Positions 1 through 12,573 of a DNA stretch of 12,573 nucleotides are shown here, one piece after another. Below the pieces are notes generated by a model. The model worked only from the letters and a program-made list of their open reading frames with translations. It was not told the DNA's origin and made no database searches. The position numbers and the translations under genes are program-made. Source of the DNA: a virus (lineage: Duplodnaviria > Heunggongvirae > Uroviricota > Caudoviricetes). Position 1 is the stretch's first letter. Each line of letters opens with the position of its first letter. The DNA lies in IMG/VR virus record IMGVR_UViG_2737471828_000010, positions 1 to 12,573 of that record; one strand, given 5' to 3'.

Positions 1-603
1 GCAGCCACGCAGACCTTTGATGGTATTGCACAGAATATGGCGGCGATGCTGACCGGCAGTGAGCAGAACTGGCGCAGCTTCACCCGTTCCGTGCTGTCCA
101 TGATGACAGAAATTCTGCTTAAGCAGGCAATGGTGGGGATTGTCGGGAGTATCGGCAGCGCCATTGGCGGGGCTGTTGGTGGCGGCGCATCCGCGTCAGG
201 CGGTACAGCCATTCAGGCCGCTGCGGCGAAATTCCATTTTGCGTCCGGGGGATTTACGGGAACCGGCGGCAAATATGAGCCAGCGGGGATTGTTCACCGT
301 GGTGAGTTTGTCTTCACGAAGGAGGCAACCAGCCGGATTGGCGTGGGAAATCTTTACCGGCTGATGCGCGGCTATGCCACCGGCGGTTATGTCGGTGGCA
401 CCGGAAGTCCGGCGCAAATGCGGCGTTCAGAGGGTATCAGATTTGAGCAGAACAACAACGTGGTGATTCAGAACGACGGTACGAATGGTCTGCCAGGTCC
501 ACAAATGCTGAAGGCGGTGTATGACATGGCCCGCAAGGGTGCCCGTGATGAAATTCAGGCACAGATGCGTGATGGTGGTCAGTTCTCCGGAGGTGGACGA
601 TGA
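1..603 (+). CDS. H: Tail tape measure protein, C-terminal fragment (5' end lies upstream of the window)
   Basis: The frame is open from base 1 with no stop before 601..603; the first in-frame ATG at 37 is not the true start. The Gly-rich C-terminal translation (...GGYVGGTGSPAQMRRSEG...KAVYDMARKGARDEIQAQMRDGGQFSGGGR) matches my recollection of the lambda gpH C-terminus. Its stop overlaps the M start (ATGA at 600..603). Confidence 0.9.
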   Translation, partial: AATQTFDGIAQNMAAMLTGSEQNWRSFTRSVLSMMTEILLKQAMVGIVGSIGSAIGGAVGGGASASGGTAIQAAAAKFHFASGGFTGTGGKYEPAGIVHRGEFVFTKEATSRIGVGNLYRLMRGYATGGYVGGTGSPAQMRRSEGIRFEQNNNVVIQNDGTNGLPGPQMLKAVYDMARKGARDEIQAQMRDGGQFSGGGR

Positions 604-929
604 AAACCTTTCGCTGGAAAGTGAAACCCGGCATGGATGTGGCTTCGGCCCCTTCCGTCAGGGAAGTGCGCTTTGGTGATGGCTATTCCCAGCGAGCGCC
701 TGCCGGACTGAATGCCGACCTGAAAACGTACAGCGTGACGCTTTCTGTTCCTCGTAAGGAGGCCACGGCGCTGGAGTCGTTTCTGGCAGAGCACGGAGGC
801 TGGAAAGCCTTTCTGTGGACGCCGCCTTATGGTTACAGGCAGATAAAGGTGACCTGCGCAAAATGGACGTCGCGGGTCAGTATGTTGCGTGTTGAGTTCA
901 GCGCAGAGTTTAAACAGGTGGTGAACTGA
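600..929 (+). CDS. M: Tail tip assembly protein M
   Basis: 109 aa, the same length as lambda gpM, and near-identical from the first residues (MKTFRWKVKPGMDVAS...VEFSAEFKQVVN). Start overlaps the H stop and the stop overlaps the L start (TGATG at 927..931), consistent with translational coupling. Confidence 0.93.
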   Translation: MKTFRWKVKPGMDVASAPSVREVRFGDGYSQRAPAGLNADLKTYSVTLSVPRKEATALESFLAEHGGWKAFLWTPPYGYRQIKVTCAKWTSRVSMLRVEFSAEFKQVVN

Positions 930-1627
930 TGCAGGATATCCGGCAGGAAACACTGAATGAATGCACCCGTGCGGAGCAGTCGGCCAGCGTGGTGCTCTGG
1001 GAAATCGACCTGACAGAGGTCGGTGGAGAACGTTATTTTTTCTGTAATGAGCAGAACGAAAAAGGTGAACCGGTCACCTGGCAGGGGCGGCAGTATCAGG
1101 CATACCCCATTCAGGGGAGCGGTTTTGAACTGAATGGCAAAGGGGCCAGCGCCAGACCAGTGCTGAGCGTGTCCAATCTGTATGGTCTGGTCACCGGGAT
1201 GGTGGAGGATTTGCAGAGTCTGGTTGGCGGAACGGTGGTCCGACGTAAGGTTTACGCCCGTTTTCTGGATGCGGTGAACTTCGTCAACGGAAACAGTGAC
1301 GCCGACCCGGAGCAGGAGGTGGTCAGCCGCTGGCGCATCGAGCAGTGTAGCGAACTGACGGCGGTTGGTGCCTCCTTTGTGCTGGCCACACCGACGGAAA
1401 CGGATGGCGCCGTTTTTCCGGGGCGCATCATGCTGGCCAACACCTGCACCTGGACCTATCGCGGCGATGAGTGCGGTTATCACGGTCCGGCGGTCGCGGA
1501 TGAATATGACCAGCCGACGTCCGATATCACGAAAGATAAATGCAGCAAATGCCTGAGCGGCTGTAAGTTTCGCAATAACATCGGTAACTTTGGCGGCTAC
1601 CTTTCCATTAACAAACTTTCGCAGTAA
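929..1627 (+). CDS. L: Tail tip assembly protein L
   Basis: 232 aa, the same length and closely similar sequence to lambda gpL as I recall it. Cysteine-rich C-terminus (CTWTYRGDECGYHG...CSKCLSGC), consistent with the Fe-S cluster described for gpL. Confidence 0.93.
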   Translation: MQDIRQETLNECTRAEQSASVVLWEIDLTEVGGERYFFCNEQNEKGEPVTWQGRQYQAYPIQGSGFELNGKGASARPVLSVSNLYGLVTGMVEDLQSLVGGTVVRRKVYARFLDAVNFVNGNSDADPEQEVVSRWRIEQCSELTAVGASFVLATPTETDGAVFPGRIMLANTCTWTYRGDECGYHGPAVADEYDQPTSDITKDKCSKCLSGCKFRNNIGNFGGYLSINKLSQ

Positions 1628-1632
1628 ATCCC

Positions 1633-2376
1633 ATGACACAGACAGAATCAGCGATTCTGGCGCACGCCCGGCGATGTGCGCCAGCGGAATCGTGCGGCTT
1701 CGTGGTGAGAACGCCGGAGGGGGACAGGTATTTACCCTGCGCGAATATTTCCGGTGAGCCGGAGGCGTATTTCCGGATGGCTCCGGAGGACTGGCTGCGG
1801 GCAGAAATGCAGGGTGAGATTGCGGCGCTGGTCCACAGTCACCCCGGTGCTCTGCCCTGGCTGAGTGAGGCCGACCGGCGGCTGCAGGTGCAGAGTGGTC
1901 TGCCGTGGTGGCTTGTCTGCCGGGGGGCGATTCACAAGTTCCGCTGTGTGCCGCATCTTACCGGGCGGCACTTTGAGCACGGGGTGACGGACTGTTATGC
2001 GCTGTTCCGGGATGCGTACCATCTGGCGGGGATTGCGCTGCCTGATTTTCATCGTGAGGATGACTGGTGGTGTCACGGTCAGAATCTCTATCTGGATAAC
2101 CTTGAAACACAGGGTTTTTACCGGGTCTCACCGCATGAGGCACAGGCAGGCGACGTGCTGCTGTGTTGTTTTGGCTCGCCTGTTGCCAATCATGCCGCCA
2201 TTTACTGTGGTGACGGCGAGCTGCTGCACCATATTCCTGAACAACTGAGCAAACGAGAGAGGTACACCGACAAATGGCAGCGACGCACACACTCCGTCTG
2301 GCGTCACCGGGCATGGCACGCATCTGCCTTTACGGGGATTTGCAACGATTTGGCCGCCGCATCGACCTGCGTGTGA
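1633..2376 (+). CDS. K: Tail assembly protein K (JAMM/MPN plus NlpC/P60 two-domain protein)
   Basis: 247 aa ORF with a JAMM-type motif H-x-H-x7-S-x2-D (HSHPGALPWLSEAD, residues 68-81) and a candidate upstream Glu in PAESCGF (residue 19), followed by an NlpC/P60-like Cys/His region (GVTDCY...NHAAIY). The classic 199-aa lambda K annotation would correspond to Met49 (nt 1777). No strong Shine-Dalgarno precedes 1633, so the exact start is uncertain. Confidence 0.85.
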   Translation: MTQTESAILAHARRCAPAESCGFVVRTPEGDRYLPCANISGEPEAYFRMAPEDWLRAEMQGEIAALVHSHPGALPWLSEADRRLQVQSGLPWWLVCRGAIHKFRCVPHLTGRHFEHGVTDCYALFRDAYHLAGIALPDFHREDDWWCHGQNLYLDNLETQGFYRVSPHEAQAGDVLLCCFGSPVANHAAIYCGDGELLHHIPEQLSKRERYTDKWQRRTHSVWRHRAWHASAFTGICNDLAAASTCV

Positions 2377-2951
2377 AAACGGGGGCAGAAGCCATCCGGG
2401 CGCTGGCCACACAGCTCCCTGCGTTTCGCCAGAAACTGAGCGACGGCTGGTATCAGGTGCGGATAGCAGGGAAAGATACAGGAGAGAGAGAGCTGTCTGC
2501 CCGTCTGCATGAGCCGCTTCCTGACGGCGCAGTGATACACCTGGTTCCTCGGACAGCCGGTGCTAAAAACGGCGGTGTTTTCCAGATTGTTCTGGGGGCT
2601 GTCGCCATTGCGGCTTCGTTTTTTACTGCAGGAGCCTCTCTGGCTATGTGGGGCGCCGCATTGAGTGCAACAACACTGAGCGCCACTACAGTCCTGTTTT
2701 CTCTCGGTGCCAGTATGATTCTGGGGGGTGTGGCGCAGATGCTGGCCCCGAAACCGAAAACGCCCCGCATGCAGACAACGGATAACGGTAAGCAGAATAC
2801 CTATTTTTCCTCACTGGATAACATGGTTGCCCAGGGCAATGTTCTGCCGGTTCTGTACGGTGAAATGCTCGTGGGATCGCGGGTGATTTCACAGGAAATC
2901 AGCACGGCTGATGAGGGGGGCGGCGGTCAGGTAGTGGTGATTGGTCGCTGA
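2274..2951 (+). CDS. I: Tail assembly protein I
   Basis: 225 aa, closely similar to lambda gpI (MAATHTL.LASPGMARICLYGDLQRFGRRIDLRVKTGAEAIRALATQLP...GGQVVVIGR). The start lies inside the 3' end of K (about 100 nt overlap, different frame), as in lambda. Confidence 0.9.
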   Translation: MAATHTLRLASPGMARICLYGDLQRFGRRIDLRVKTGAEAIRALATQLPAFRQKLSDGWYQVRIAGKDTGERELSARLHEPLPDGAVIHLVPRTAGAKNGGVFQIVLGAVAIAASFFTAGASLAMWGAALSATTLSATTVLFSLGASMILGGVAQMLAPKPKTPRMQTTDNGKQNTYFSSLDNMVAQGNVLPVLYGEMLVGSRVISQEISTADEGGGGQVVVIGR

Positions 2952-2968
2952 TGCAAATGTTTTATGTG

Positions 2969-2993
2969 AAACCGCCTCCGGGCGGTTTTTTTT
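2969..2993 (+). terminator. GC stem-loop followed by an 8-T run between I and J (intrinsic terminator or attenuator)
   Basis: aaaCCGCCtccgGGCGGtttttttt lies directly after the I stop (2949..2951) and before the J ribosome binding site (GGAGAG at 2996..3001). Confidence 0.5.
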
Positions 2994-3007
2994 ATGGAGA
3001 GTAAGTG

Positions 3008-6000
3008 ATGGGTAAAGGTGGCGGTAAGGCGCATACGCCCCGTGAAGCCAGAGATAACCTGAAATCCTCCCAGTTGCTGAGTGTGATTGACGCCATCAGT
3101 GAAGGACCGGTTTATGGTCCGGTTGACGGGCTGAAAAGTGTCCGCCTGAATGGTACGCCGGTACTGGACAGCGGGGGGAATACCAACTTTTCCGGTGTCA
3201 CGGTGGTGTTCCGTTCCGGTGAACAGGAGCAGACACCGCCGGAGGGGTTTGAATCCTCCGGCTCCGAGACGGTACTGGGTGCGGAAGTGAAATACGACAC
3301 GCCGATAACCCGGACCATCACGTCGGCAAACATCGACCGTCTGCGCCTGACCTTCGGGGTGCAGGCACTGGTGAAAACCACCTCAAAGGGGGACAGGGAG
3401 CCGTCGGAAGTCCGCCTGCTGGTTCAGATACAGCGTAATGGTGGCTGGGTGACGGAAAAAGACATCACCATTAAGGGCAAAACCACCTCGCAGTATCTGG
3501 CATCGGTGGTGGTGGATAACCTGCCGCCGCGCCCGTTTAATATCCGGATGCGCAGGATAACGCCGGACAGCACCACGGACCAGTTGCAGAACAAAACGGT
3601 CTGGTCGTCATACACCGAAATCATCGATGTGAAACAGTGCTACCCGAACACGGCACTGGTCGGTGTGCAGGTGGATTCTGAGCAGTTCGGCAGCCAGCAG
3701 GTGAACCGCACTTACCATTTTCGTGGTCGTATTCTGCAGGTTCCGTCGAACTATAACCCGCAGACGCGGCAATACAGCGGTATCTGGGACGGAACGTTAA
3801 AACCGGCATACAGCAACAACCCGGCCTGGTGTCTGTGGGATATGCTGACCCACCCGCGCTACGGCATGGGGAAACGTCTTGGTGCGGCAGATGTGGATAA
3901 ATGGGCGCTGTATGTCATCGGCCAGTACTGCGACCAGTCAGTGCCGGACGGTTTTGGCGGCACGGAGCCGCGCATCACCTGTAATGCCTGGCTGACCACA
4001 CAACGTAAGGCGTGGGATGTGCTCAGCGATTTCTGCTCGGCGATGCGCTGTATGCCGGTATGGAACGGGCAGACGCTGACGTTCGTGCAGGACCGGCCAT
4101 CGGATAAGGTGTGGACCTATAACCGCAGTAATGTGGCGATGCCGGGTGATGGCGCGCCGTTCCGCTACAGCTTCAGCGCCCTGAAGGACCGCCATAATGC
4201 CGTTGAGGTGAACTGGATTGACCCTGACAACGGCCAGGAGACGGCGACAGAGCTTGTGGAGGACACGCAGGCCATTGCCCGTTACGGTCGTAACGTCACG
4301 AAGATGGATGCCTTTGGCTGTACCAGTCGTGGGCAGGCGCACCGCGCCGGGCTGTGGCTGATTAAAACAGAACTGCTGGAAACGCAGACCGTGGACTTCA
4401 GCGTGGGTGCTGAAGGGCTTCGCCATGTACCGGGCGATGTCATTGAAATCTGCGATGATGACTATGCCGGTATCAGCACCGGCGGGCGCGTGCTGGCGGT
4501 AAACAGCCAGACCCGGACGCTGACGCTCGACCGTGAAATCACGCTGCCATCCTCCGGTACCACGCTGATAAGCCTGGTTGACGGAAGTGGCAATCCGGTC
4601 AGCGTGGAGGTCCAGTCCGTCACCGACGGCGTGAAGGTAAAAGTGAGCCGTGTTCCTGACGGCGTTGCAGAATACAGCGTGTGGGGGCTGAAGCTGCCGA
4701 CGCTGCGTCAGCGCCTGTTTCGCTGTGTGAGTATCCGTGAGAACGATGACGGCACGTATGCCATCACCGCCGTGCAGCATGTACCGGCAAAAGAGGCCAT
4801 CGTGGATAACGGGGCGCACTTTGACGGCGACCAGAGCGGCACGGTGAATGGTGTCACGCCGCCAGCGGTGCAGCACCTGACTGCCGAAGTCACCGCAGAC
4901 AGCGGGGAATATCAGGTGCTGGCGCGCTGGGACACGCCGAAGGTGGTGAAGGGGGTGAGCTTCCTGCTCCGTCTGACCGTAACAGCGGACGAAGGCAGTG
5001 AGCGGCTGGTCAGCACGGCCCGGACGACGGAAACCACATACCGCTTCACGCAACTGGCGCTGGGGAACTACAGGCTGACAGTCCGGGCGGTAAATGCGTG
5101 GGGACAGCAGGGCGATCCGGCATCGGTATCGTTCCGGATTGCCGTACCAGCAGCGCCGTCGCGGATTGAGCTGACACCGGGCTATTTTCAGATAACCGCC
5201 ACGCCGCATCTTGCGGTTTATGATCCGACGGTGCAGTTTGAGTTCTGGTTCTCGGAAAAGCGGATTGCGGATATCAGGCAGGTTGAAACCAGCGCGCGTT
5301 ATCTTGGTACGGCGCTGTACTGGATAGCCGCCAGTATCAATATCAAACCGGGCCATGATTATTACTTTTATATCCGCAGTGTGAACACCGTTGGCAAATC
5401 GGCATTCGTGGAGGCTGTTGGTCAGCCGAGTGATGATGCATCCGGTTATCTGGATTTTTTCAAAGGCGAGATAGGGAAAACCCATCTGGCTCAGGAGCTG
5501 TGGACGCAGATTGATAACGGTCAGCTTGCGCCTGACCTGGCTGAAATCAGGACGTCCATTACGGATGTCAGCAATGAAATCACACAGACCGTCAATAAGA
5601 AACTGGAAGACCAGAGTGCAGCGATCCAGCAGATACAGAAGGTTCAGGTTGATACAAATAATAATCTGAACAGCATGTGGGCTGTGAAGCTGCAACAGAT
5701 GAAGGACGGACGCCTTTATATTGCGGGTATCGGTGCCGGTATTGAGAATACGCCAGCAGGAATGCAGAGTCAGGTGCTGCTGGCGGCAGACAGGATTGCG
5801 ATGATTAATCCTGCGAATGGCAACACAAAGCCGATGTTTGTTGGTCAGGGTGATCAGATATTCATGAATGAAGTGTTCCTGAAATATCTGACGGCTCCCA
5901 CCATTACCAGTGGCGGTAATCCTCCGGCGTTTTCCCTGACTCCGGACGGGCGGCTGACGGCGAAAAATGCGGATATCAGCGGTAACGTGAACGCGAACTC

Positions 6001-6487
6001 CGGGACACTCAACAACGTCACGATAAATGAGAACTGCCGGATTCTGGGAAAACTGTCAGCCAACCAGATTGAAGGCGATATTGTTAAAACAGTGGGTAAG
6101 GCTTTTCCCCGGGACTCCCGGGCACCGGAGCGGTGGCCATCAGGGACCATTACCGTCAGGGTTTATGACGATCAGCCGTTTGACCGGCAAATTGTTATTC
6201 CGGCGGTGGCATTCAGTGGCGCTAAGCATGAGAGAGAGCATACTGATATTTACTCCTCATGCCGTCTGATAGTGCGGAAAAACGGTGCTGAAATTTATAA
6301 CCGTACCGCGCTGGATAATACGCTGATTTACAGTGGTGTTATTGATATGCCAGCAGGCAGAGGTGTAATGACACTGGAGTTTTCGGTATCAGCATGGCTG
6401 GTGAATAACTGGTATCCCACCGCAAGTATCAGCGATTTGCTGGTTGTGGTGATGAAAAAATCCACAGCCGGTATCACGATTAGCTGA
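3008..6487 (+). CDS. J: Tail tip / host specificity protein J (central tail fiber)
   Basis: About 1159 aa. The N-terminus [34 protein letters not shown]... and most of the length are closely similar to lambda gpJ as I recall it. The ORF track begins at GTG 3005, but ATG 3008 with GGAGAG 6 nt upstream is the more likely start. The last ~150 aa and a block near nt 5460-5700 diverge from lambda. Confidence 0.93.
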
Positions 6488-6505
6488 ATTTTATAATCCA
6501 TATAC

Positions 6506-6531
6506 TGGCGCCAGAAATGGCGCCTTTTTTA
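6506..6531 (+). terminator. Intrinsic terminator downstream of J
   Basis: Palindromic stem GGCGCC (6507..6512) / GGCGCC (6519..6524) with loop agaaat, followed by TTTTTT (6525..6530), 20 nt after the J stop. Confidence 0.65.
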
Positions 6532-6584
6532 TTGTTATTCCTGAATCCTCTCTTCCGGGGCTGACATTGACTTATGGAGTACAT

Positions 6585-8306
6585 ATGGCCGTACAGATAT
6601 CTGGTGTACTGAAAGACGGTGCGGGTAAACCGGTGCAGGCGTGTTCAATTGAATTGCGGTCCAGAAAAACGAGTCCGACGGTGATTGTGCACATTGTGGC
6701 GGAATGTATTACGGACAGTAACGGGCGGTATTTAATCGAAGCCGAGCCAGGATTTTATGATGTTTTTCTTCTCCGTGAAGGGTGGGCTCCGGTAAAAGCC
6801 GGTGAGATTTATGTCACACCGACGGATAAGCCGGATACGCTGAATGCATTTCTGGATGCTCCCAAAGATGGCGATTTGCGTCCTGAGGTGATGAAACGCT
6901 TTGAGATAATGGTGAATACCGTTATTACGCTGTCTGAGCAGGTTACCCGTGATAAGGAGGCAACAGGCGCAGACGCCGCGGCAGCGGCAGAATCGGCGTC
7001 CGCTGCCCGGGAAAGTGAAAGGAAATCGCAGAATTATGAGGTGCAGTCTCAGAAAAATGCAGAGTCTGCAGCCGGAAGTGCGCAGGAGGCCGGACAATAT
7101 GCTGTGGAGGCTGCACAGGCAAGAGATAATACGCAGACCCTTGCTGATGCGGTGCAGAAAAATGCAGAGGTTGTGGCAGAACAGCGTCAGCAGGTGAATA
7201 TACTGGCTGCAGAAATGGCAGAAAATGCCGGACAGGTTCAGCAGGATAAACAGGATACTGAGCGGCTGCTGGAGCAGGCACAACAGGCAGCCAGTGAGTC
7301 TTCAGCCAGTGCCGTGGAGTCGGGGACGCATGCCAGCGAAGCTGCACAGAGTGCACGGCAGGTAAGCAGTGATTTACAGAAGACGGTAACGGCACGTAAT
7401 GAGGCAGAGGGTTTTGCCACAGAGGCCGCCAGTCGTGCAGAAGAGAGTGCACAGATAAAAGCGCAGACGGAGTCCGTGGCTCTGAATGTTCAGCATGTGG
7501 CAGACAGTGTTGTGGCTGTAAGCCAGTCTGTGGAGCTACAGGCCGGGCAGGTGCAGCAACTGGTCAGCCAGGCGGAAGACAGTGCCACGACAGCAGGTGA
7601 ACATGAGCAGGGGGCACTGAAGGCACTGGAGGAGGCCAGGGAGATTGCAAAAACGCCAGGACCACAGGGAGAGCCAGGACCGCAGGGGGAGACCGGCCCA
7701 CAGGGCCCCAGTGGTGAAAAGGGAGAGAAAGGGGACCGGGGCGATACCGGGCCTCAGGGAGAAAAAGGTGAGAAAGGCGATAAAGGTGATACCGGTGCCC
7801 GGGGAGCTACCGGCCCACAGGGGCCTCAGGGACCCATGGGACCCAGCGGAGTTTACCCGGAAGACGGGATAAAGACTGCGAAAAAATTCACGGGTATTCT
7901 GGCTCATGGTTTTATGTATTCTGACCTTCAGTTTCCGTTGCTGAAATATAACCACTACCTTGCCTGTGAAGACCACCCCGTTCCGGGTGCCGCGGGAAAT
8001 TATTCGTATGGTCTGATGTGGCAGGTTCCGACGAATGAGAATGTTTCAGGTCAGATTTTCCTTAACTGTATGGGACAGGCATTCATCAGGGCTTACAGCG
8101 GACTGGGTACCACTTCATGGTGGCAGTTTGCCGGTCGTCCGGTAGCCGGTGGTGTGGGGAGTTACCTGTTCTGTGCTTCTCAGGATGCGGTCAGTTACGG
8201 AGATGAACTGGCCGGAGAGCGGCTTGACCCGGTACAGTCAGGAATATGGATGGCCTGCGGAAATGCAGAAGCTGAAGAGAAAATGCTTTTTCTGAGGGTG
8301 AAATAA
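6585..8306 (+). CDS. stf: Side tail fiber protein (Stf-like) with an Ala/Gln/Glu-rich shaft, a collagen-like tract and a distinct C-terminal domain
   Basis: N-terminus [24 protein letters not shown]... resembles the lambda Stf N-terminus ([17 protein letters not shown]...). ATG 6585 has GGAG 5 nt upstream; the track start TTG 6567 is less likely. Residues ~125-360 form a low-complexity A/Q/E/S-rich region, and the C-terminal ~150 aa is a globular-looking domain I cannot assign. Confidence 0.8.
7659..7850 (+). repeat. Collagen-like Gly-X-Y repeat tract (64 residues) inside the tail fiber gene
   Basis: Uninterrupted G-X-Y periodicity, [64 protein letters not shown], visible in the DNA as repeated ggN-ccN-cag and ggN-gaN-aaa units. 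Confidence 0.85.
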
Positions 8307-8917
8307 TGGATACCAGGAATTCAGAAGCGGACGTGCGCAATGCCCGTTTTAATGAAGACGGCAGCATTACCTGTGAGGTGTTCATGGCAGACCGTTCTGA
8401 TGACAGTCATCGGGTATATGTACCTTATACTGCCAGAGCTTCAGACCCGACAGAATTCGGGTTAAGGCTCTGGTCAGGACTGATATCAGGGGACCTTGGT
8501 GAAGTCACGCCGTTTGTGGTGACAGAGGAGATACTGGAAAAGGCCAGAAATCAGAAATACGGTGAAATCAGTCGCTGGCGTGACAGCCAGGAGAACAGCA
8601 GTTTTGTTTTTGAATTCAGTGGTCATCGCTGGGATGCCGGAAAGGCGTCACAGTCCAGACTGACACCTGTTGTTGCGGTGGCAGGAAACGGGCTGTTGCC
8701 GGAGCATTTTTTCTGGACGGATGCGGATAATCAGGATGTCACTCTGACGCCGGAAGAGCTGATACAACTGGATACTGCGATGAATGCGGCGATGGTGATG
8801 CAGGGGTTTAAAATCCACGAACGCCAGCGCCGGATGAAAGAAGAAGTGGCAGGGCTGACCGCACTGCCGGATATTCGTGCGTATCCTGTTGGCTGGCCGG
8901 AGGGTGATGATGAGTAA
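8306..8917 (+). CDS. Putative tail fiber assembly protein (Tfa-like chaperone)
   Basis: 203 aa ORF whose ATG overlaps the fiber stop (TAATG at 8304..8308), with a GAGGGTG ribosome binding site upstream. Position immediately after the fiber gene and a C-terminal segment (...TPEELIQLDTAMNAAMVMQGFKIHERQRRMKEEVAGLTALPDIRAYPVGWPE) reminiscent of Tfa C-termini. Assigned by context plus weak similarity. Confidence 0.6.
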   Translation: MDTRNSEADVRNARFNEDGSITCEVFMADRSDDSHRVYVPYTARASDPTEFGLRLWSGLISGDLGEVTPFVVTEEILEKARNQKYGEISRWRDSQENSSFVFEFSGHRWDAGKASQSRLTPVVAVAGNGLLPEHFFWTDADNQDVTLTPEELIQLDTAMNAAMVMQGFKIHERQRRMKEEVAGLTALPDIRAYPVGWPEGDDE

Positions 8918-9290
8918 GTTCACCACACCGGCCATTCTGGAGATGCTGGATGATTACCGCTGGCGGCTGGTTGAGCCGTTTGAATTCTGGCTGACGGATA
9001 ACCCGGATGATGTGATTTATGTTCCGGAGGGATATGTGACGGACCTTGCCAGTGTGCCACGGCTTCTGTGGGCTCTGTTCCCGCCGCATGGTCGTTATGC
9101 GAAAGCGGCGATTATTCATGACTGGCTGTATGACAATGCCCTGCGCACGAAGGCGGAAGCGGACAGGATATTTCTGGATGCGATGACGGTGCTGGGAGTT
9201 CCACGCTGGCGCAGACGGTTGATGTATCTTGCGGTAAGGTTGTTCGGGAAAGGGAAATACAGCGACACGCAACAGGGGACCTGTTGCTGA
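8907..9290 (+). CDS. DUF1353-like small protein (tail-fiber-associated, function unknown)
   Basis: About 127 aa from the ATG pair at 8907/8910, with GGAGGG at 8899..8904, overlapping the stop of the preceding gene. Translation MMSKFTTPAILEMLDDYRWRLVEPFEFWLTD...YVTDLASVPRLLWALFPPHGRYAKAAIIHDWLY resembles the DUF1353 signature as I remember it. The track start GTG 8877 is less likely. Confidence 0.55.
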   Translation: MMSKFTTPAILEMLDDYRWRLVEPFEFWLTDNPDDVIYVPEGYVTDLASVPRLLWALFPPHGRYAKAAIIHDWLYDNALRTKAEADRIFLDAMTVLGVPRWRRRLMYLAVRLFGKGKYSDTQQGTCC

Positions 9291-9320
9291 AAAAAGTCTG
9301 CCATACAGATGTATGGCAGA
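9290..9320 (-). terminator. Leftward intrinsic terminator candidate (H1)
   Basis: Perfect stem CTGCCATA (9298..9305) / TATGGCAG (9312..9319), flanked on the + strand 5' side by six A's, which gives a 3' U-run on the - strand transcript. Confidence 0.5.
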
Positions 9321-9493
9321 AAAGGTATCCAAGGGAGAAGACACTGCAGTGCAGTATCCCTTATGGTCGGCGGTGATTATATAACCACAGAACGGCGCAT
9401 CAAACAGTTTTACGTACCAGTTGTTAAATTTGTGTATTATATCAAACAAATTGGTAACATGCTGCTGTGTGTAAATGTGATGTTAACATGGTG

Positions 9494-9529
9494 ATATGTG
9501 TTACTGACTGGTATTGCCTGTTCACCTGG
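9494..9529. repeat. ~36 nt repeat, copy 1 of 2 (atatgtgttactgactggtattgcctgttcacctgg)
   Basis: Matches 10569..10609, which carries a short internal insertion (ccacg/accacgt). Both copies are in the ORF-poor AT-rich region. Confidence 0.6.
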
Positions 9530-9564
9530 TCTGTGAAGATATGCAACATGGCCCATGTTGTAGC

Positions 9565-9597
9565 AAAAAAAGCCTGCCATACAGATATATGGCAGGC
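9565..9597 (-). terminator. Leftward intrinsic terminator candidate (H2, paralog of H1)
   Basis: Stem GCCTGCCATA / TATGGCAGGC with loop cagata, preceded on + by seven A's. On the - strand this reads as a GC stem followed by TTTTTTT. Same stem as H1 with a 1-nt loop difference. Confidence 0.6.
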
Positions 9598-9805
9598 AAA
9601 CGTCTGTTACGGGAAAACAAATGAATGTCGGGTATAGTACCCCCTTACTTGACTCCTTCACAATTATGCATCAATAATGAAACATATAAAGCATTTGTAT
9701 TTTCTTATTGCTGGTTTTGTGTATTGCGTCTCAAAACTAAATTATTTTATTACTCTCATAATAAATGAGGTAAATTATATATATAGTTATTTATTCTGTT
9801 TTTAT

Positions 9806-9834
9806 AAAAAGAAGCCCACAGATTACTGTGGGCT
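9806..9834 (-). terminator. Leftward intrinsic terminator candidate (H3)
   Basis: Stem AGCCCACAG / CTGTGGGCT with loop atta, preceded on + by tataaaaagaa (a U-rich tail on the - strand). Confidence 0.55.
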
Positions 9835-10085
9835 AAGCATTAGCATTATTTATATTAGTATAGTTACGGTTGCTGTAAGCATATTAGCTTACGGAAATGT
9901 TGATAACTCTGATGGGAATCACAAAAAAATACCAGTGCTGAAAATGACAGTACTGGTAAAAATATGATGAGTATTTGCAAAAAATACAACCGAATTGCTC
10001 TGTAAGGTTCACTACCTCTTTTATTCTACTATAAATTATAGTACATAGTTCTGTGATACTTATCACGCTGTATATTCATTGGTAT

Positions 10086-10110
10086 AAAAAGGCCCGTATG
10101 GATACGGGCC
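10086..10110 (-). terminator. Leftward intrinsic terminator candidate (H4)
   Basis: Stem GGCCCGTA / TACGGGCC with loop tgga, preceded on + by tataaaaa. Confidence 0.55.
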
Positions 10111-10207
10111 TGGCTTACGGGATAGGCTAACTGAGTAAGTAGGGTTATGGCTTACTCGCCGGCAGTATACCATATAAAACAACGGACAATTCTTTGCGGT
10201 AAATCAT

Positions 10208-10236
10208 AAAAAAAGACCCGTACCGTACGTGCGGGT
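10208..10236 (-). terminator. Leftward intrinsic terminator candidate (H5)
   Basis: Stem ACCCGTAC / GTGCGGGT (one non-Watson-Crick position) with loop cgtac, preceded on + by seven A's. Confidence 0.45.
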
Positions 10237-10354
10237 GTTAATTGCTGGTGAAGCTGTCAGAGGTGCATATTATTATAATAACGCTTGTAGACGTTTGTTA
10301 TTATTTATGCCCTCTATTACTGGTACTGTGATTTCCATCACAAAAATACATTAT

Positions 10355-10382
10355 AAAAAGAAAGCCCGCAGATTATGCGGGC
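10355..10382 (-). terminator. Leftward intrinsic terminator candidate (H6, paralog of H3)
   Basis: Stem GCCCGCA / TGCGGGC with loop gatta, preceded on + by tataaaaagaaa. Differs from H3 by a compensatory base-pair change (A-T in H3, G-C in H6). Confidence 0.55.
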
Positions 10383-10401
10383 AATAGCTTATGCATGAGA
10401 T

Positions 10402-10426
10402 GAACGACTCCGGGTCGTTTATTTTT
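10402..10426 (+). terminator. Weak rightward hairpin with T-run (possible + strand terminator)
   Basis: Stem AACGAC / GTCGTT with loop tccgg, followed by tatttttc. Short, AT-rich stem. Confidence 0.3.
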
Positions 10427-10568
10427 CTTAATAAGAAGGACTACATTTATATTCTACTATGTAAGTATGGTATTGATGATGTGAAGTATATCTCAAATTA
10501 ACGCAATAAGAAAAAGCAACAACCCATTTCTGAATGTGAGAGAACTGCTAATATAGCAATATGTGTTC

Positions 10569-10609
10569 CTGACTGGTACCACGTATTGCCTGTTCCAGGA
10601 GCATATTTG
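10569..10609. repeat. ~36 nt repeat, copy 2 of 2 (atatgtgttcctgactggtaccacgtattgcctgttccagg)
   Basis: Direct repeat of 9494..9529. Confidence 0.6.
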
Positions 10610-10665
10610 CCTGGATTCAGATTGCTCGTAATTCACCACGGCTATAAATCGTAAAGAAAATTGCA

Positions 10666-10718
10666 GCACGCCCTATGCAAGAACGTGCCACGGCTGGCTG
10701 GCAAACTTTCGATAGTGC
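10666..10718. repeat. ~50 nt imperfect direct repeat, left copy (hairpin with loop tatgcaaga ... cgatagtgc), left flank of the peptidase cassette
   Basis: gcacg-ccctatgcaagaa-cgtgc-cacggctggctggcaaactttcgatagtgc aligns with 12269..12321 (first 15 nt tatgcaagaacgtgc identical; roughly 80 percent identity over the remainder). Confidence 0.65.
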
Positions 10719-10998
10719 GAGTATTGAATGATTTCCAGTCGTTATTGATTCTACGCATTAATTTATGAACAAACTACTTATCTGTGGTCTTTCGGTCTGT
10801 AATAGGGGCCCTGTCTGAAATGGAGTTTCAGGATTAAGCGATATCGTACTCACCCTTAGTCCCACCTGATAAATCTGGAGAACGGAAGCACTGCCAGATG
10901 ATGGTGGTGGCTACAATTACTCACACTCAATATTCGGAGCAATCACGTACATCATCACGATGCTAGGAATGCGGAGTTTGATGACTGTCCAGTGATGT

Positions 10999-11029
10999 AA
11001 AAAGAGACCCCGGCGTAGTAGCCGAGGTC
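10999..11029 (-). terminator. Leftward intrinsic terminator candidate for the peptidase gene
   Basis: Stem GACCCCGGC / GCCGAGGTC (one mismatch) with loop gtagta, 22 nt downstream of the - strand stop at 11051..11053. On the - strand it is followed by tctcTTTTT. Confidence 0.5.
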
Positions 11030-11050
11030 CTCAATCAGAAACTACAATAT

Positions 11051-12055
11051 TCACTGAGTGCCTTCATCTGGTTGCTCTGCTGGTAAGGTTCCAGCCTCTT
11101 CTTCAATTTCCGCATGTTTTCCATCGCTTCCCTGGACAGGTTCATCCCTTGGCGGTTCTGCTCTTCCTGAATTTTGGTCAGAGATTTCATCTCCTTCCTG
11201 AATTCTGCTGTTGTCATGGGAATCTTCCTCTGCGTTAGTTGTTTCATATTGTTTTTTAGGAGTTAAATCTTTAATCACCGGTTTGTCGAAGATAGAGATT
11301 TCGCCTGACGAAATCATCTCACCAAGAACTTCGTACAGGTTGGCTGCAAAGTCTGTAGGACTCTCAACATGGTTGAATAGTTCCCTCGCCTCTTTACGGT
11401 CTATCACAAAACCATGGGCTGGATATCCAGCGATCAACTTGCCTAAGGAGCTTTCCTTAAGATTTTTCGAGTGACTATTCAAACGCTCCCCATAGGAAAG
11501 CGCTATGTTCATTGCTCGTTGATGCTCCCCGAGTTTGATGGGGTCTATCTGTGAGGCCATCGGCGATATGATTGCTTCAGTAAGCTTAGCAGCAATATCT
11601 GCAGACATCTTCGTGCTAATTTGGTTTCTGTACTTTATATCAAGTACGTATGATCTAAAGGTCGAAATAGCGCACTCTTTTATTTCATCAATCGCCGTTG
11701 CGATAACAAGGCCCGAGCTCAATTCGCCGATCTCATCATTTTTCTTAAGTTGGATGTCTAGAGGACCAAGCTCACCCATATCACCAATCACGAGCTTATG
11801 AGCGGCGACAGCCATCAAGGTTCCAGCACTTTTGCAAGGGCCAACAACTAGAACGGTGATGTGTTCATAGTTGTGTTGCAAAGCGCGGCCAATTCTATAT
11901 CCTGCGCTGGGATCACCGCCATAGGTAGCGACGCAAAAAAGAACATTTTTTTGTAAACCATGGTTAGTTTTTCTTTCTTTAATCGCTTTGGTGATGTCGT
12001 GATGACCAGAGCGGTGAACATCGCCTATGTATACGTAAACGTCTGTATCTTGCAT
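11051..12055 (-). CDS. Stand-alone ClpP/SppA-fold serine peptidase-like protein (S49/SDH-like) with an acidic low-complexity C-terminal tail
   Basis: 334 aa ORF with ribosome binding site AGGGA 5 nt upstream of the ATG (- strand). N-terminal ~220 aa follows the ClpP-fold pattern: ATYGGDPSAGYRIGRAL echoes the ClpP NSPGGSVTAG segment, and VVGPCKSAGTLMAVAAHK echoes the ClpP/SppA nucleophile segment (GQAASMG type), giving a candidate catalytic Ser in CKSAG. The last ~70 aa are Asp/Glu-rich and low complexity. No His in the position of the ClpP catalytic His, so a Ser-Lys dyad (SppA-like) is possible. Confidence 0.6.
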   Translation of the reverse strand: MQDTDVYVYIGDVHRSGHHDITKAIKERKTNHGLQKNVLFCVATYGGDPSAGYRIGRALQHNYEHITVLVVGPCKSAGTLMAVAAHKLVIGDMGELGPLDIQLKKNDEIGELSSGLVIATAIDEIKECAISTFRSYVLDIKYRNQISTKMSADIAAKLTEAIISPMASQIDPIKLGEHQRAMNIALSYGERLNSHSKNLKESSLGKLIAGYPAHGFVIDRKEARELFNHVESPTDFAANLYEVLGEMISSGEISIFDKPVIKDLTPKKQYETTNAEEDSHDNSRIQEGDEISDQNSGRAEPPRDEPVQGSDGKHAEIEEEAGTLPAEQPDEGTQ

Positions 12056-12268
12056 TTTAATCCCTATGAATAAAATGGTTGAATTTAATGCTGTTCCTCA
12101 GCCAAAGCACTATATCGATAACCAAAATACCTCAGATTTGTCGAGAAAACTATCTGGAAAATTAGGCTAACTCTTTGAATCTTCGGAATGCAAAAGAGAT
12201 ACTTTCTCTGGATGTGCGCCAGGTTGATGTGTAAGTATGGCGGTCAGAATAGTCTCGAAAAACCGCAG

Positions 12269-12321
12269 GCACGTTGTATGCAAGAACGTGCTGTGGTTGG
12301 CAGGTGAACTTCCGATAGTGC
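12269..12321. repeat. ~50 nt imperfect direct repeat, right copy; also a terminator-like hairpin directly downstream of the DinI-like gene
   Basis: gcacgtt-gtatgcaag-aacgtgc then tgtggttggcaggtgaacttccgatagtgc. On the - strand the hairpin is followed by a T-run (complement of aaaaa at 12258..12262). Confidence 0.6.
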
Positions 12322-12324
12322 TCA

Positions 12325-12573
12325 TTAGTGAACAAACCACTCGTCAGCAGACTCCCAGGTATCTTTCAGAGTTTCCTGCACAAAAGTTTTAGCTGAATCT
12401 TTATCGGCTGTGCGCGTAACAGAAAGGCCATCGTTGCTGGTGGCTTTTACGATCACCTCTACATCGTCATAACGCTTACTGATGCGTCGGGTTAATTCTT
12501 CCTTTAACGCATCCACAGCACTGGTTGGCATTTTAGTCATTTTTTCTTTGGCTATGCAGATTTCAATACGCAT
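12325..12573 (-). CDS. dinI: DinI-family protein (DNA damage-inducible protein I-like, prophage-encoded)
   Basis: 82 aa: [37 protein letters not shown]...[15 protein letters not shown]. Start and C-terminal WESAD-WFV motif match E. coli DinI as I recall it (MRIEVTIAK...ETWESADDWFVSE). The start codon is the last three bases of the window, so the promoter is outside it. Confidence 0.85.

Follow-up and report, generated by a model that had tools for sequence, protein, structure and literature searches.

The side tail fibre gene of a lambdoid prophage was found to end in an unannotated, rare head domain, which belongs to a small family and is mobile between fibres of siphovirus, myovirus and podovirus type. 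The gene lies in a stretch of 12,573 nucleotides (nt) from a tailed virus (IMG/VR record IMGVR_UViG_2737471828_000010, positions 1 to 12,573; hereafter the window), and these 12.6 kb are the distal end of the prophage. We consider it probable that the gene encodes a trimeric side tail fibre with a beta-structured head, that the protein encoded downstream chaperones it, and that the head and the N-terminal module of this chaperone travel as one cassette. What was observed directly and carries this reading is how the domains are laid out, how rare the head is and how modularly it is distributed, the constant pairing of the two genes and a recombination joint.

Domain layout of the fibre and its rare head

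The fibre open reading frame (ORF) starts with ATG at 6585, with GGAG 8-11 nt upstream, and stops with TAA at 8306. Its parts are the following.

6585..8306, + strand: side tail fibre gene, 573 residues plus stop, directly after J
6585..6980, + strand: PfN, the Stf-type N-terminal virion-attachment domain, residues 1-132 (PF08400 phage_tail_N, E-value (E) 3e-40)
6981..7658, + strand: Ala/Gln/Glu/Ser-rich coiled-coil shaft of PCoil type with heptad periodicity, residues 133-358 (226 residues)
7659..7856, + strand: collagen-like tract of 22 uninterrupted Gly-X-Y triplets, G359-Y424 (66 residues; Pfam Collagen, E 3.7e-10)
7857..8123, + strand: variable N-terminal half of the tip, residues 425-513, where allelic divergence is concentrated; candidate receptor-contacting part
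8124..8303, + strand: conserved C-terminal half of the tip, residues 514-573, ending ...SGIWMACG...MLFLRVK, without amino-acid change among alleles; proposed trimerisation and chaperone-docking strands

An earlier note, made from the letters of the window alone, had described the first ~100 residues as similar to lambda Stf, and our searches bore this out. In addition to the PF08400 match, residues 1-113 are 50% identical to lambda orf-401 (E 7e-33), the start of the fibre matches that of lambda Stf (MAV[K/Q]ISGVLKDG), and the ORF directly follows J in a lambdoid tail operon, the position of a lambda Stf-type fibre. Eight E. coli genomes carry this gene under the annotation 'prophage tail fiber N-terminal domain-containing protein'. 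Residues 1-92 match chain Ta of PDB entry 9E7M (E 4e-20), which is the Stf in the tail-tip structure of Ur-lambda (the file names it 'Tail fiber protein'). In Ur-lambda, twelve N-terminal parts of Stf build a dodecameric collar round the tail that carries four trimeric fibres (PMC12617516), and the N-terminal domain of the window fibre would dock on its tail in the same way.

We found that the shaft consists of 22.6% Ala, 13.7% Gln, 12.8% Glu and 10.6% Ser, with one Pro. The A/Q/E-rich composition noticed at first thus stood, but the description of this part as plain low complexity did not: its hydrophobic and Ala positions have a single sharp period of 3.50 residues (power 5.95 against a shuffle 95th percentile of 1.71), indicating a heptad coiled coil. 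The PCoil module of the E. coli prophage fibre EPclA is an alpha-helical, trimerising coiled coil (PMC3368898).

The collagen-like tract is uninterrupted, as first reported, but it counts 22 triplets up to 7856 and not 21 up to 7850 (21 if the last triplet, G-V-Y, is left out); the earlier end point took in 21 triplets and one Gly codon. Its DNA holds tandem repeats of 9, 18 and 45 nt. The expectation that its length varies between isolates was confirmed, with 20-22 triplets observed: one E. coli protein is two triplets short (567 residues), and in the KS-NP019-type allele a triplet missing at one site is offset by an extra one elsewhere. We propose that the shaft as a whole is a 226-residue Ala-rich trimeric coiled coil continued by a 66-residue collagen triple helix.

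In NCBIfam, the collagen-like adhesins SclB, Lcl and SclA are weakly matched (E 1e-16 to 8e-10), which could suggest an Scl/Lcl-like adhesin of the bacterial surface, or a virulence factor, carried by the prophage as cargo outside the virion. These matches fall far under the cut-offs and are confined to the Gly-X-Y tract and adjoining residues. The attachment domain and the place directly after J argue against cargo as well, as does the fact that the alignment with lambda Stf begins at residue 1, so that an N-terminal signal peptide would have no place. No LPXTG motif was found in the translated fibre, and all tip relatives that we examined lie in a phage tail or baseplate context. We therefore regard this explanation as extremely improbable and treat the protein as a virion fibre.

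The last ~150 residues had been said not to resemble the Gly/His/Ser-rich tip of lambda Stf, and BLASTP against that gp37-like tip protein, lambda orf-314, indeed gave nothing better than E 4.4. Searches of Pfam, PHROGs and NCBIfam with residues 425-573 gave no match up to E 10, tblastn (E <= 0.01) gave none in 50,697 phage records, and profile searches of the PDB with the tip and DUF4376 alignments matched no chain, so that no common, characterised fibre tip came out of the domain, structure and phage genome collections. The N-terminal module has homologues in 322 phage records. Because this module is widespread and the tip is rare, the gene is a mosaic, as it had been read at the outset.

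An AlphaFold2 model of the tip was all beta (predicted local distance difference test score (pLDDT) 88.3; predicted template modelling score 0.78). Its structural neighbours are receptor-binding or fibre proteins, namely the R2 pyocin fibre, phage K gp144, the receptor-binding proteins of S. aureus phages phi11 and phi812 and T4 gp34, at 8-16% sequence identity and with no sequence-level relationship to any PDB chain. A Foldseek search of BFVD gave weak matches only (best E 1e-5, TM-score 0.51). The model and its neighbours suggest that this 149-residue head, at the distal end of the fibre, is the probable receptor-binding part, and its variable first half would be the best candidate for receptor contact.

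The tip is a distinct domain, as suspected, and is both unannotated and rare, but it is not an orphan. An exhaustive HMMER scan of 1.84 billion representative proteins gave 24 matches, 19 of them at E <= 1e-10; apart from a 96%-identical cluster (P0001), these 19 are 37-44% identical to the window tip, and the matched part is at the extreme C-terminus. A word-index homologue search, with the tip alone or with a 17-sequence profile, misses the family and returned the 96%-identical cluster and one distant protein only. A locus search with a tighter alignment gave no match in 185,579 species genomes, and among viral sequences it gave one contig. A broad head alignment has no conserved stretch of 7-10 columns. 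The family alignment (A1) defines a C-terminal domain of ~135 residues with ten invariant columns, against which the window scores 188.7 bits (local hidden Markov model score). Its consensus is

HP.PG...WG..W..P(R)...(Y)P.Q.F.N.....F.R....G...WWQ..G.PV...G(T)...G..L.P...G(T)W...G......(F).R(I/V)

and the window allele departs from it with WQVPT for WV.PR, SGQ for YP.Q, GSY for GT, GIW for GTW and the end MLFLRVK.

Members of the family come from enterobacterial genomes, one of them Edwardsiella tarda, and from metagenomes. They are joined to different anchors: Stf-type (PF08400), P2 gpH-type (Phage_tail_fib/Phage_fiber_2), T7 gp17-type (Phage_T7_tail) and repeat-rich ones with no Pfam match. 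Carriers with the PF08400 anchor may have or lack the coiled coil, and most have collagen tracts, of varied length. The surrounding tail modules are lambda-like, P2-like or of SU10-adaptor type, and one prophage has a T7-type terminase. A second, commoner E. coli branch (68 genomes matching the P0007 cassette) was considered and set aside, as it shares the N-terminus, the collagen tract and the DUF4376 gene only, not the head.

The DUF4376 partner and a co-transferred cassette

The fibre stop overlaps the start of the next gene (TAATG at 8304-8308). The encoded protein has the following parts.

8306..8917, + strand: DUF4376 protein, 203 residues
8306..8567, + strand: N-terminal module, putatively tip-specific, residues 1-87, predicted to form three beta strands and a helix
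8568..8917, + strand: DUF4376 domain, the presumed generic, exchangeable chaperone body (PF14301, E 3e-19, 69.8 bits against a gathering cut-off of 25)

The earlier note had suggested a check of Tfa dependence. We found no Caudo_TAP Tfa downstream of the fibre, where the next proteins are the DUF4376 protein and a DUF1353 protein, and the DUF4376 protein showed no similarity to lambda orf-194. A DUF4376-type partner is the next forward-strand gene in 10 of 10 readable contexts of the head family; in one an opposite-strand gene intervenes, and in another the partner is cut by the contig end after 75 residues, which match the N-module only (hhalign 99.7%). In SU10-adaptor-type contexts, a 196-residue opposite-strand gene with no Pfam match lies directly downstream of the fibre (L005, 5866-6456, - strand; L003, 6501-7091, - strand). 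It separates the fibre from the DUF4376 gene in L005, and the L003 contig ends before any DUF4376 gene.

DUF4376 proteins are known from experiments as tail-fibre chaperones of Alteromonas phages V22 (gp27) and A5 (gp9), and gp27 is essential for active fibres (PMC7289586, PMC10579305). In their AlphaFold models they form trimeric caps whose N-terminal strands extend the sheet of the fibre head, like intramolecular chaperone domains such as those of T5 pb1 and the K1F endosialidase (PMC7289586, PMC10579305). The model of the window partner likewise combines three strands at the N-terminus with a helical body and hairpins (pLDDT 92.6). By analogy with these pairs, we propose that the window fibre and its partner work in the same way. 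Folding and registration of the chains would start at the C-terminus, where the invariant last strands of the head may nucleate trimerisation, and the downstream protein would assist. Its first ~87 residues, a predicted three-stranded sheet plus helix, could recognise these last strands and so give specificity, and the helical DUF4376 domain would be a generic oligomerising body that does in trans what chaperone caps do intramolecularly in other fibres. A distant member of the head family lies in a P2-like locus in which the 243-residue assembly protein of the first fibre joins Caudo_TAP_N (PF28596) to DUF4376 (L024, 2270-3001); this fusion links Tfa N-domains and DUF4376 bodies as interchangeable modules.

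The boundary between the two parts of the partner is sharp. From residue ~88 on, a DUF4376 protein common in E. coli (P0026) does not differ from the window partner, whereas the residues before are ~35% identical; P0026 follows a 764-residue Stf with an unrelated tip. When the DNA of the window was compared with that locus (L026), identity jumped from 50-77% to 100% at ~8568, continued into the DUF1353 gene and dropped again at ~9200, close to where that gene ends. This joint indicates that the tip was exchanged as one cassette with the partner's first ~87 residues. In Pseudomonas phage phiPSA2, the conserved half of the head has its homologue in the last ~75 residues of gp41 (hhalign 95.5%, E 1.4e-8), and gp42 (118 residues, no DUF4376) is homologous to the N-module of the partner only (hhalign 94%, E 1e-7). 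That tip and chaperone N-module move together is supported by three independent observations at the sequence level, and the cassette appears to pass between fibres of siphovirus, myovirus and podovirus type.

A terminal motif, PGT[WYF]...[LM]FxR[IV], was found in six further fibres whose tips are otherwise unrelated (P-EibA ORF-401-like, GER2, phiP27 L56, Actinobacillus pPE4 gp69, Av-05 and E. coli 2017.17.03CC), and an enterobacterial-type DUF4376 gene follows each of them. The motif is absent from fibres paired with Caudo_TAP and from Vibrio and Acinetobacter fibres whose partners match the DUF4376 domain only. A terminal motif common to DUF4376-paired fibres is thus hinted at as a pattern, and it is not proof. 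A broader idea is conceivable, although we would not bet on it: the head and the first ~87 residues of the partner may be an undescribed, co-transferred 'lock-and-key' cassette; the last two fibre strands (PGTW...LFxRI-COOH) may be a general docking signal for widespread trans-acting cap chaperones, both DUF4376 proteins and short gp42-like ones, across lambda-, P2-, T7- and SU10-like phages of Enterobacterales and Pseudomonas; and the variable half of the head may recognise a new receptor of bovine-associated E. coli. If this were true, the joint at chaperone residue ~87 would be a rational splice point for engineered fibre swaps.

Allelic variation and prophage setting

The fibre gene was present in 8 of 5,426 complete E. 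coli genomes at 95.8-98.7% DNA identity, with two copies in one of them, and the hosts of the carriers, where recorded, were cattle or buffalo. The exact fibre protein is absent from a collection of 15 billion proteins. In the 90% cluster (P0001, 63 members), the members listed are mostly fragments of 67-240 residues from draft E. coli assemblies, which is consistent with assemblies breaking in the repetitive collagen DNA. As short-read assemblies break there, counts of repeat variants from drafts are unreliable. One cluster member (P0152), on a 483-bp contig, is labelled Staphylococcus arlettae, most likely through contamination.

The closest complete genome, that of E. coli GXU-23-25-310 (NZ_CM171611.1), is 96.3% identical across the whole window, and at this locus (L001), the closest full-length prophage copy, a tyrosine integrase gene and dusA directly follow. 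GXU-23-25-310 holds its two fibre genes in different prophages; one copy is 98.7% identical to the window gene, and the second belongs to the dusA-adjacent prophage, the one that matches the whole window and contains an IS66 element.

The small number of genomes, the fragmentary database copies and the IS66 element among the prophage genes of the closest full-length locus might together suggest that the gene is a relic in a decaying prophage which no longer makes a functional fibre. We judge this very unlikely. The ORF is intact and its length preserved in all eight complete genomes, and the ratio of non-synonymous (dN) to synonymous (dS) divergence is 0.07-0.42 where substitutions suffice for an estimate (collagen tract and head). 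Furthermore, the tail genes in the window form an uninterrupted series (the tape-measure C-terminus, M, L, K, I and J, the last with full-length Pfam matches), and the fragments are explained by the assembly breaks.

Divergence among the alleles is uneven along the fibre. We found that dS is 0.01-0.04 for the N-terminus plus shaft, 0.21-0.27 for the collagen tract and 0.10-0.35 for residues 425-513. The amino-acid replacements are almost confined to residues 425-513 (dN 0.04-0.12), and residues 514-573 have none. Positive selection on the head was considered and rejected, since its dN/dS of 0.3-0.4 gives no demonstrable diversifying selection; with dN/dS at or under ~0.4, the pattern fits older divergence that was imported and is under purifying selection.

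These data also bear on a different division of labour, in which the C-terminal domain, like PfC, mainly trimerises the fibre and registers the collagen helix, and the DUF4376 protein is retained as a distal cap or adhesin that binds the receptor, as T4 gp38 or Mu Tfa does. In EPclA, PfC and PCoil serve as trimerisation modules (PMC3368898), the head does not vary among alleles in its C-terminal half, DUF4376 chaperones have been proposed as fibre 'caps' (PMC10579305) and the PHROGs label of the partner family is 'tail fiber protein', all of which would fit. However, amino-acid change among alleles is concentrated in the head (dN up to 0.12), with a dN of 0.006-0.025 in the N-module of the partner and none or nearly none in its DUF4376 domain. 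A DUF4376 domain of identical sequence goes with an unrelated tip, as would not be expected of a specificity determinant; the caps have been proposed to be transient (PMC10579305); and the structural neighbours of the head are receptor-binding proteins. We consider a receptor-binding partner unlikely and favour a receptor-binding head with a chaperone that assists its folding.

Several points nevertheless weigh against a chaperoned, cassette-borne fibre. The A5 fibre is functional without its chaperone gp9 (PMC10579305), so dependence on the partner cannot be assumed. The IS66 element of the GXU-23-25-310 locus lies upstream of the tail genes, and some copies may therefore sit in defective prophages. 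Outside the family, no single match to the terminal motif is significant (E 1.9-3.4; hhalign 9-60%). Finally, we infer the trimeric state, the action and binding of the chaperone, the docking surface and receptor binding by the variable half.

Beyond the partner, the window contains these further genes.

8910..9290, + strand: DUF1353 protein, 126 residues (PF07087, E 2e-33); its start overlaps the DUF4376 stop by 8 nt
11051..12055, - strand: SDH-like protein, 334 residues, annotated elsewhere as 'SDH family Clp fold serine proteinase' (ClpP-like)
12325..12573, - strand: DinI-like gene after the 334-residue protein, cut by the window end

The typhoid toxin islet encodes TtaP, a phospholipase A2 with this DUF1353 domain, and TtaP is similar to prophage DUF1353 proteins (PMC11525133). 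The PHROGs label of the family is 'tail assembly chaperone', and in other contexts the gene is not consistently linked to the head family. The Pfam SDH_protease match of the 334-residue protein is under the cut-off (27 versus 31.3 bits). PADLOC and Rfam scans of the fibre neighbourhood were empty, and the 334-residue protein had no PADLOC match. Positions 9500-10500 are AT-rich (GC content 0.34-0.37 versus 0.50-0.60 in the tail genes) and hold only short ORFs without a family match. In sister prophages (L002, KS-NP019 and others), the corresponding place is taken by the gene of a 'YadA C-terminal domain-containing protein', which the window lacks and which resembles the Eib immunoglobulin-binding proteins of P-Eib prophages.

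Comparison with known fibre systems

Side tail fibres set the adsorption speed and strain range of lambdoid phages, including Stx-converting and cargo-carrying prophages. The locus adds to them an unannotated tip family without a solved or named relative; it overturns nothing, as new tips on mosaic fibres are expected. An exchange unit defined at nucleotide resolution as tip plus partner N-module gives a testable rule for which chaperone fragment should accompany a transplanted tip, and this rule applies to the retargeting of phages, pyocins and packaged cosmids. The 'chaperone cap' system of Alteromonas phages would also be extended to common prophages of E. coli and Salmonella.

The layout of the fibre is that of the EPcl fibres of E. 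coli prophages (EPclA-D, Ghosh et al. 2012, PMC3368898), which have the same order of PfN, PCoil, collagen and C-terminal globular domain, also follow J in lambdoid prophages and vary in collagen length by multiples of three residues. EPclA forms trimeric dumbbell-shaped molecules with this layout (PMC3368898). Unlike EPclA and EPclB, the window fibre has no PfC (PF06820 unmatched at E <= 10), its collagen tract is shorter (66 residues) and its PCoil has 226 residues versus the usual 88-116. By these differences it is nearer the loosely defined EPclC/D ('other C-termini') than EPclA/B.

With lambda Stf, the fibre shares a homologous attachment domain and the position distal to J. It differs from the lambda Stf/Tfa pair in having no gp37-like tip, no Caudo_TAP Tfa and no lom counterpart, and lambda Stf has no collagen tract.

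Closer to the gene pair are P-EibA (ORF-401-like/ORF-191A), GER2 and phiP27 (L56/L57), in which an Stf-type fibre is followed by a DUF4376 protein 37-43% identical to the window partner over nearly its full length. Their fibres end in ...PGTW...LFQRIV (P-EibA and GER2) or ...PGTY...LFVRIA (phiP27 L56), and their tips are unrelated to the window head save for the last ~23 residues (hhalign <= 9%). The likeness to P-EibA extends to the window's sister prophage L002, where an Eib-like YadA gene follows. In phiPSA2, a gh-1-like phage, gp41 and gp42 share the conserved half of the head and the N-module with the window pair; phiPSA2 differs in its T7 gp17-type anchor, in having no variable half of the head and in the lack of DUF4376 in gp42.

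According to the published descriptions, V22 gp26/gp27 and A5 gp8/gp9 likewise pair a fibre with a DUF4376 protein encoded right after it and built from N-terminal strands and a helical body, a module common to morphologically unrelated phages (PMC7289586, PMC10579305). Those fibres are described with shoulder-stem-neck-knob-lectin heads and no collagen tract, and it is from analogy with them that a chaperone role is suggested for the enterobacterial partner. Taken together, the overall EPcl layout was known already, and anchor and position, but neither tip nor chaperone, make the fibre an Stf; new here are a head family that carries no annotation anywhere and a cassette boundary resolved inside the chaperone gene.

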